NCBI RefSeq assembly: GCF_003334785.1
Contig: NZ_QOWV01000005.1
Reading direction: 5' to 3' (one strand)
Source: Escherichia coli
GTDB taxonomy: Bacteria > Pseudomonadota > Gammaproteobacteria > Enterobacterales > Enterobacteriaceae
DNA: 64,000 nucleotides
Part shown: positions 3,600 to 4,050 of the stretch, piece by piece
Numbering within the stretch: the first letter of the stretch is position 1
How the letters are laid out: each line of letters starts with the position of its first letter
Translations under genes and position numbers: made by a program
The notes under the pieces: model-generated
Told to the model about the DNA's origin: nothing
The model's database searches: none
Seen by the model: only the letters and a program-made list of their open reading frames with translations

Positions 3600-4050
3600 T
3601 TTTCCAAATCTGGTCACTGAAAATAAACAGGATCTTACACCATGTTATCCACAGAAAGCTGGGATAACTGTGAAAAACCTCCACTACTGTTTCCATTTAC
3701 AGCCTTGACGTGCGACGAAACTCCAGTTTTTAGTGGTTCAGTGCTTAACTTAGTGGCACATTCTGTGGATAAATACGGCATTGGTTGATCTTTCGCCAAC
3801 CCGTAAATGAGAGGTGTGACCTGGGTCACGAATTACTCTTTTTCATTACTAAAATTACATGTAATGCATTGACTGATAATGAATATTTTAAAATGTCTAT
3901 ATCGGGCTTATTCAGAATGCTCCGGGTTTTCCCGTAGTAATTCCGTAGTTCTTCACAACTCTATCCACAGAAAAGGTGAATAAAAACGGCTATCCACCCC
4001 TTCCTCTGTTTATAACTCTGCACATAACTGTGAGTTATTCAATTGTTATT
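3600..4050. promoter_or_regulatory. DnaA-box cluster consistent with DARS2 (DnaA-reactivating sequence 2) in the mutH-rppH spacer; also carries the rppH-ptsP promoter
   Basis: Perfect DnaA boxes TTATCCACA (3645-3653) and TGTGGATAA (3764-3772, opposite orientation), near-consensus CTATCCACA (3961-3969) and CTATCCACC (3990-3998), in a 685-bp AT-rich gene-free region; DARS2 is described between mutH and ygdP/rppH in E. coli. Confidence 0.55.

Follow-up and report, generated by a model that had tools for sequence, protein, structure and literature searches.

The cluster of DnaA boxes between mutH and rppH in this Escherichia coli contig is almost certainly DARS2, the non-coding element that regenerates ATP-DnaA from ADP-DnaA. 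The assignment is based on sequence identity, the exact positions of the sites, an excess of DnaA boxes and deep conservation, all observed in the DNA itself; DnaA binding and nucleotide exchange at these sites would follow from the literature on the identical MG1655 sequence. E. coli relies mainly on DARS2 to recharge the replication initiator DnaA, and the element thereby governs when rounds of chromosome replication occur. As the element is already well studied, the finding is correct yet ordinary: recognizing DARS2 here gives a correct annotation and no new biology, and the original prediction rightly called it known biology and not a novel element. The value of the present check lies in placing every published DARS2 site, to the base, in the coordinates of the window, the whole 64-kb stretch of DNA that was analysed.

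The mutH-rppH gap and its identity with MG1655

The gap is bounded by mutH, a minus-strand ORF of 229 aa at 2767-3456, and by rppH, a plus-strand ORF of 176 aa at 4141-4671. Both proteins scored above their NCBIfam equivalog cut-offs, and the identities obtained from the ORF listing and NCBIfam agree with the MG1655 annotation, where the gene order is ptsP, rppH, ygdT, mutH, ygdQ. The two genes are divergent and the cluster lies between them, which is the location of DARS2. The gap spans 684 bp (3457-4140). The spacer had been assigned correctly to mutH and rppH at the outset; its length, given as 685 bp, needed correction. Its G+C content is 0.38-0.43 throughout, versus 0.48-0.60 in the flanking genes, and the AT-rich setting that had been described was thus borne out. 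An Rfam scan of 3300-4300 on both strands (E ≤ 1) returned no RNA family.

The window runs in reverse orientation with respect to MG1655, a window position being equal to 2973118 minus the NC_000913.3 coordinate. By megablast, all but one of 5426 complete E. coli genomes (5425) carry the gap sequence, with identities of 95-100%. Compared with MG1655 there is a single base difference in the gap, at 3487 in the mutH-proximal flank and outside DARS2, and the 455-bp DARS2 fragment at 3552-4006 is 100% identical. Since the lone SNP falls outside the element, DARS2 here is identical to the sequence used for all published biochemistry.

DnaA boxes are clustered in the gap far above chance

Mismatches of DnaA boxes were counted against the consensus TTATNCACA. 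Direct reading of the sequence showed the perfect 9-mer TTATCCACA at 3645-3653 on the plus strand and TGTGGATAA, which is TTATCCACA on the minus strand, at 3764-3772, confirming the positions and the opposite orientation reported for the two perfect boxes. They are the only perfect 9-mers in the 64 kb, where 0.38 were expected. Two further boxes had been called near-consensus: the one at 3961-3969 on the plus strand (CTATCCACA, one mismatch) holds and is box II of the DARS2 core, and the one at 3990-3998 (CTATCCACC, two mismatches) is weak.

Could such a cluster arise by chance in AT-rich intergenic DNA? Taking the window as a whole, sites with one mismatch or none are not enriched (55 versus 47.6 expected), as a chance origin would have it. 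Locally, however, the gap holds nine such sites. In 2000 local dinucleotide-preserving shuffles of the gap the count averaged 1.12 and peaked at 5, none of the 2000 reaching nine; and outside the cluster no stretch of 684 bp in the window had more than four. The positions of the boxes are also conserved from Escherichia to Vibrio. The local shuffle statistics together with the conserved positions and spacing of the boxes refute a chance cluster, which we regard as next to impossible; the cluster in the gap is real and far above chance.

A base-exact map of the DARS2 sites

DARS2 was first described by Fujimitsu in 2009. We reconstructed the numbering of the boxes from the primers and legends of papers later than that description. 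The primer tables were those of Kasho 2014 (PMC4245941 supplement) and Miyoshi 2021 (PMC8682772 supplement), and all genomic primer or oligonucleotide segments that we extracted (29/29) mapped uniquely and without mismatch; those used to mutate the core, IBS1-2, FBS1-6 and boxes IV-VI all fall within the 455-bp fragment. The published numbering runs along the minus strand of the window, DARS2 nucleotide p corresponding to window position 4007-p. The sites are as follows.

3552-4006, minus strand: full 455-bp DARS2 fragment, cloned and assayed in the literature; primers MutH-4 (3988-4006) and MutH-2Nosite (3552-3570)
3774-4006, minus strand: minimal DARS2 (published construct ΔRight, pOA67), enough for stimulation of initiation on a plasmid (PMC4245941)
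3949-3983: core, equal to the ΔCore deletion; exact ends from primers MutH-14/MutH-15
3975-3983, minus strand: core DnaA box I, TTATTCACC, 1 mismatch (plus-strand letters GGTGAATAA)
3961-3969, plus strand: core DnaA box II, CTATCCACA, 1 mismatch
3949-3957, plus strand: core DnaA box III, TTCTTCACA, 1 mismatch
3908-3916, plus strand: DnaA box IV, TTATTCAGA, 1 mismatch; flanked exactly by subDnaAboxIV primers Ksh-30/Ksh-31; dispensable in published plasmid assays
3862-3890: IHF-binding region IBS1-2, with 13-mers at 3862-3874 (plus strand) and 3878-3890 (minus strand), from a consensus scan
3824-3838: Fis site FBS1, GGTCACGAATTACTC, perfect match to GnnYAnnnnnTRnnC; flanked by subFBS1 primers Ksh-3/Ksh-4; non-essential according to the literature
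3776-3797, minus strand: Fis sites FBS2-3, GGCGAAAGATCAACCAATGCCG, from the PMC8682772 supplement and a consensus scan
3773-3793: critical 21-mer, exactly the bases omitted by Δ21 primers MutH-24/MutH-25
3764-3772, minus strand: DnaA box V, perfect TTATCCACA; flanked by subDnaA box V primers
3645-3653, plus strand: DnaA box VI, perfect TTATCCACA; flanked exactly by subDnaAboxVI primers Ksh-34/Ksh-35; dispensable in published plasmid assays
3582-3596, minus strand: Fis site FBS6, GTTGCAGTGTTGCGC, sequence given in the PMC8682772 supplement; non-essential according to the literature

The core reads TTCTTCACA-act-CTATCCACA-gaaaa-GGTGAATAA (3949-3983). Boxes I and II are head-to-head across a 5-bp spacer, and boxes III and II are head-to-tail across a 3-bp spacer. 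The 5-bp spacer between boxes I and II is stated in PMC6868365, the single mismatch in each core box in PMC11724364, and box II is listed within a 'double DnaA box' under a DnaA ChIP-seq peak in PMC11317965.

At the level of sequence, IBS1-2 is placed between the core and the Fis sites, and FBS2-3 in or next to the critical 21-mer and box V, as expected for DARS2; in the same sequence-level test the two IHF 13-mers each had one mismatch to TAAnnnnTTGATW. The subIBS1-2 primers Ksh-16/Ksh-19 replace approximately 3869-3884 and affect both 13-mers; which of these is IBS1 and which IBS2 is our own inference. A PciI site (ACATGT, 3857-3862) adjoins IBS1-2, and a PciI site beside the IBS is indeed stated in PMC11724364. 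To the Fis consensus, FBS3 has one mismatch and FBS2 two, and the published FBS2-5 oligonucleotide maps to 3751-3802 on the minus strand. The critical 21-mer and FBS2-3 are reported in the literature to be essential for DARS2 activation. Two GATC sites are found in the gap, at 3631 and 3787, the latter within the FBS2-3 region.

Alignment to the published DARS2 core and its IHF and Fis sites had been proposed as a check, and all of these proved to be present at primer-defined positions. The mapping of the published primers and the identity of 3552-4006 with MG1655 upheld the identification as DARS2, and no finding spoke against it. The extent was another matter: the published 455-bp element occupies 3552-4006 and not 3600-4050.

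The imperfect boxes form the core

The catalytic core, at which ADP-DnaA exchanges its nucleotide, is made up of the three imperfect boxes at 3949-3983, not of the perfect ones. The two perfect boxes are V, which acts in negative feedback, and VI, which is dispensable on plasmids; they are regulatory or dispensable. As the core consists of boxes III, II and I at 3949-3983, the original prediction had caught only one of its three boxes (II). Its inventory was right for boxes II, V and VI, it missed core boxes I and III as well as box IV, and it included at 3990-3998 a site that is not a recognized box.

The latter site has two mismatches, lies outside the named boxes I-VI and is 30% conserved among Enterobacteriaceae genera. 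It survives in the ΔCore mutant, and ΔCore constructs are inactive and show no DnaA binding in pull-downs (PMC4245941). An alternative numbering, in which 3990-3998 would be box I, 3975-3983 box II and 3961-3969 box III, was rejected by the ends of ΔCore, which are exactly 3949-3983. Box I at 3990-3998 is also contradicted by the alignment to DARS1, by the single mismatch of each core box and by the 5-bp spacer between boxes I and II.

Proposed mechanism and DnaA binding in vivo

From the published work on the identical sequence, the following course of events may be proposed for this locus. ADP-DnaA would bind the three imperfect core boxes, and the protomers on boxes I and II would face each other across the 5-bp spacer, their head-to-head AAA+ contact leading to release of ADP; box III (3949-3957) would stabilize the complex head-to-tail. 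A bend introduced by IHF at 3862-3890 would allow Fis at 3776-3797 to act upon the core complex, both proteins being required and DARS2 being presumably inactive if either is missing. Apo-DnaA would then depart from DARS2 and rebind ATP. When ATP-DnaA is high, an oligomer growing from box V across the flanking low-affinity boxes would evict Fis and switch DARS2 off.

Several of these steps are documented. Release of ADP by the head-to-head pair on boxes I and II depends on Gln208, with box III stabilizing (PMC6868365), and IHF- and Fis-dependent release of ADP from ADP-DnaA as well as regeneration of ATP-DnaA in vivo were published for the identical sequence (PMC4245941). Binding of IHF at DARS2 is timed in the cell cycle and favoured by negative supercoiling (PMC4245941, PMC11724364). 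Displacement of Fis by ATP-DnaA oligomers that extend from box V over boxes Va-c constitutes a negative feedback (PMC8682772). In published genetics, ΔDARS2 cells have fewer origins per mass and a fitness cost.

DnaA ChIP-seq found three peaks at DARS2, with 78-, 199- and 213-fold enrichment (PMC11317965). By our own conversion these correspond to window positions of about 3994 (core, 78-fold), 3812 (199-fold) and 3617 (213-fold). The second lies approximately 40 bp from box V. The third, which is MG1655 position 2969501 and the strongest DnaA ChIP-seq summit of the locus, lies approximately 30 bp from box VI. The coordinates in PMC11317965 are labelled NC_000913.2 but appear to be those of NC_000913.3, as they fit the listed boxes only in the latter.

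Conservation of core, boxes and spacing

That the core, IBS1-2, FBS2-3 and box V are conserved has been published before. We searched genome contigs with RppH and obtained 80 rppH-anchored loci, from Escherichia to Vibrio and Shewanella. In 69 of the 80, mutH is divergently adjacent to rppH. It is not next to rppH in the Morganellaceae (Photorhabdus, Xenorhabdus, Providencia, Morganella, Arsenophonus and Moellerella), and in these loci no core-like motif was found upstream of rppH. One locus without a mutH match (L034, a MAG contig) has just 95 bp of sequence ahead of rppH and is not informative.

The large majority of the mutH-adjacent loci carry a core with at most four mismatches in total, 153-205 bp from the rppH start; the best scores in shuffles were 7-12 mismatches. 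Among the mutH-adjacent loci, no core was found in Photodesmus. Four loci (Dickeya, an Enterobacterales MAG, Ferrimonas and Shewanella) have their best triplet farther out, 450-690 bp upstream of rppH. Both the positions at which the core departs from the consensus and its 'gaaaa' spacer are conserved as well.

In every core-bearing Enterobacterales locus, box V is found at -197 and box VI at -316 relative to box II, to within 1-2 bp; the corresponding values in Vibrionaceae are about -203 and -323. Box V is invariant in 20 of 20 Enterobacteriaceae genera and box VI across Enterobacterales. Conservation is weak for box IV (0.63) and poor for FBS6 (0.43). Between the core and box V, Enterobacteriaceae genera share only 34-49% sequence identity; the length of this segment is constrained and its sequence free, which fits an IHF-looped architecture. 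The best IHF match falls most often at the E. coli position (10 of 46 loci), the site being too degenerate for its conservation to be asserted with confidence.

We also observed that the spacing between boxes V/VI and the core is kept within 1-2 bp in Enterobacterales and within approximately 10 bp out to Vibrionaceae, with varying sequence in between.

A second core-like triplet around box VI

A second core-like triplet was observed at 3633-3667 on the plus strand, around box VI, reading TCTTACACC-atg-TTATCCACA-gaaag-CTGGGATAA. Its outer boxes are as follows.

3633-3641: outer left box of the second triplet, TCTTACACC
3659-3667: inverted outer partner, CTGGGATAA

The triplet has the 9-3-9-5-9 geometry and the orientation of the core, with five mismatches. 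When the 64 kb were scanned for the III-3-II-5-I arrangement with a relaxed consensus and at most six mismatches, only the core and 3633-3667 were found, and even one such triplet appeared in only 0.9% of the gap shuffles. Around box V there is no core-like triplet with at most six mismatches. The second triplet is kept in most of 46 further Enterobacterales loci, from Escherichia to Plesiomonas; about 5 of the 46 have a degraded outer left box, and the 3-bp spacer of the triplet varies among loci, as that of the core does. It is not kept in Vibrionaceae. A limited literature search found no description of it, and a search for DARS2 together with DnaA box VI gave nothing. We present the second triplet as a lead and not as a claim of discovery.

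The longest conserved block of the gap, at about 3599-3735, is in the right half of DARS2 around box VI. Conserved motifs in the right half include TTGACG at 3705-3710 and ATTTACAGCCTTGAC at 3695-3709. In plasmid assays the right half is dispensable for DARS2 activity (PMC4245941). It is conceivable, although we consider it doubtful, that this block is a functional module, either a second site of nucleotide exchange or DnaA sensing, or a DnaA-controlled switch of mutH or rppH. If so, the role of the right half would be seen only at single copy on the chromosome and not in multicopy plasmid assays.

Small ORFs in the gap

The gap had been described as devoid of credible coding potential. No conserved ORF was indeed seen in it, but the description left unmentioned ygdT, an annotated ORF of 48 aa on the plus strand (3642-3788; b4610 in MG1655). 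It is therefore worth asking whether a genuine gene for a small protein underlies the conservation around boxes V and VI. ygdT is annotated in RefSeq under the match in every E. coli genome among the matches listed, in addition to b4610 of MG1655, and an AGGA is found 8-11 nt upstream of its ATG. Across genera, however, the reading frame dissolves as the DNA motifs stay invariant: with the frame fixed by box VI, the ATG is replaced in most genera by CTG, GGG, CAG, TAT, AGG or TAC, and in-frame stops are scattered from 4 to 75 codons. There is moreover no NCBIfam family for YgdT, and a full-text literature search returned no paper on the YgdT protein, only unrelated papers or mentions in gene lists. 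A real gene is thus very unlikely to account for the conservation, and, judging by the comparison across genera, ygdT is probably a chance ORF over regulatory DNA. The reading frame of the minus-strand ORF at 3635-3829 is likewise not conserved, in support of the earlier view that it is non-coding.

Transcriptional control, origin-like and datA-like alternatives

The boxes might also, or instead, be DnaA operators for mutH, rppH or ygdT, as at dnaA, nrdAB and mioC. Their setting is a divergent promoter region, the ChIP peaks over boxes V and VI are stronger than the one over the core, and the block at about 3599-3735, with its TTGACG at 3705-3710, is highly conserved though dispensable on plasmids. 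Against this, a promoter scan of the gap gave a single weak sigma-70-like site, at 3516 to 3489 on the mutH side, which overlaps no box and is fewer than the number found in shuffles; the literature examined holds no report of DnaA regulation of mutH or rppH; and operators would leave unexplained the core geometry that is common to DARS1. We consider this reading unlikely; an operator role would at most be an additional function of DARS2, and the promoter scan lends it no support. A terminator scan gave one hairpin with a T-run, at 3815-3830, which is not above shuffle expectation.

Several DnaA boxes with an IHF site and heavy DnaA occupancy in vivo are also what would be seen at a datA-like element, that is, a DnaA sink or site of ATP hydrolysis, or at an origin-like element. 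The locus and the sequence, however, are those of DARS2, and datA lies beside glyVXY and queG (PMC11724364); the head-to-head geometry of boxes I and II is the signature of DARS; and published genetics has ΔDARS2 and ΔdatA acting in opposite directions, the former lowering origins per mass. Taken together, the locus, the geometry and the phenotypes in the literature exclude a datA-like element. As for an origin, no DUE-type 13-mer with at most two mismatches was found in 3457-4140, and the absence of DUE 13-mers together with the presence of only two GATC sites excludes one of the oriC type. Altogether we give these two alternatives an extremely small chance, and retain DARS2 as the identity of the cluster.

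Comparison with known systems

The closest system is DARS2 of E. coli K-12 (Kasho 2014, PMC4245941; Miyoshi 2021, PMC8682772; Kasho 2025, PMC11724364), which is identical over 455 bp and shares the flanking genes, the core, IBS1-2, FBS1-6 and boxes IV-VI. Within the element there is no difference, and the one SNP, at 3487, is outside it.

The layout of box III, 3 bp, box II, 5 bp and inverted box I is common to DARS2 and DARS1 of MG1655, whose core reads TAATACACA-tgg-TTATCCACA-ggaat-AGTGGATAA. DARS1 differs in that its box II is a perfect match to the consensus, that no protein cofactors are needed and that it resides at the bioD-uvrB locus; all core boxes of DARS2 have one mismatch, and DARS2 has in addition a regulatory region with IHF and Fis sites and box V. 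Like DARS2, datA consists of clustered DnaA boxes and an IHF site in non-coding DNA, is timed by IHF and shows heavy occupancy in ChIP-seq. Its output, however, is ATP hydrolysis and not nucleotide exchange, it is found at another locus, and it has neither the head-to-head core nor the dependence on Fis that characterize DARS2.

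A second core-like triplet of DnaA boxes encloses box VI

DnaA box VI (3645-3653, +), a perfect box of the DnaA-reactivating element DARS2, was found to lie within a second triplet of boxes, and both box VI and box V are overlapped by an annotated gene:

3633-3667, second core-like DnaA-box triplet, enclosing box VI: TCTTACACC-atg-TTATCCACA-gaaag-CTGGGATAA
3642-3788, plus strand, ygdT (b4610), annotated gene of 48 aa, overlapping boxes VI and V

The geometry of this triplet (9-3-9-5-9) and the orientations of its boxes are identical to those of the DARS2 core, and a window-wide scan of the 64 kb identified such triplets at these two places only. 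The triplet is kept in most of 46 further Enterobacterales loci, and the same locus comparison showed that it is not kept in the Vibrionaceae loci. We found no description of it in the accessible literature. As for ygdT, its start codon and the position of its stop are not conserved beyond Escherichia and Citrobacter while the underlying DNA is conserved, and the gene is probably spurious, an ORF lying across regulatory DNA.

Across the rppH-anchored loci L003-L082 the distances from core box II to the distal boxes are fixed within a group: -197 for box V and -316 for box VI in Enterobacterales, within 1-2 bp, and about -203 and -323, respectively, in Vibrionaceae. Among Enterobacteriaceae genera, sequence identity over the stretch from the core to box V is only 34-49%. 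In 3645-3983 the constraint is on length and phasing, not on sequence.

Other elements of the mutH-rppH gap

Three further segments of the gap are conserved among the loci or repeat-like:

3815-3830, GTGACC-tg-GGTCAC, an inverted repeat with perfect 6-bp arms and a T-rich run after it, abutting or overlapping the Fis site FBS1
4008-4050, conserved block in the interval that separates the rppH start from the core-side end of DARS2: tgTTtatAacTt...tgtgagTtat
4071-4105, conserved block in the same interval: GGTTTACC...GAAACAA

The inverted repeat was flagged as terminator-like, yet it does not exceed what shuffles give, and conservation of the segment is poor. The two blocks presumably represent the rppH promoter or 5′ leader. 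Nearly invariant across Enterobacterales is ATTTACAGCCTTGACG (3695-3710), which contains a -35-like TTGACG; to our knowledge, no protein site or promoter has been assigned to it.

The 684-bp gap differs from MG1655 solely at 3487, where MG1655 has C and the window T. This position is outside DARS2, in the flank proximal to mutH, and falls just past the -10-like hexamer of the single promoter-like site (3516 to 3489). The DARS2 ChIP-seq peaks in Table 1 of PMC11317965 are labeled NC_000913.2, but they (window 3617, 3812 and 3994) fit the listed box sequences only as NC_000913.3 coordinates.

Loci that depart from the pattern

In Morganellaceae (Photorhabdus, Xenorhabdus, Providencia, Morganella, Arsenophonus and Moellerella; L037, L044, L049, L051, L053-L056, L059 and L061) mutH is not adjacent to rppH, and no DARS core-like triplet was found in the 1 kb upstream of rppH. 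Since a DARS2 homologue is listed for Photorhabdus (Miyoshi 2021, PMC8682772), DARS2 may have stayed with mutH at another location.

In L047 (Dickeya), L062, L075 (Ferrimonas) and L081 (Shewanella) the top-scoring triplet is found at a distance of 450-690 bp from rppH; its middle box is perfect and its spacer is 'gtttt' or 'gaatg'. The core of these lineages may be degenerate. The triplet of Dickeya and L062, TTTTACACT-atg-TTATCCACA-gtttt-TTGGGATAA, is closer in look to the box VI module than to the canonical DARS2 core.
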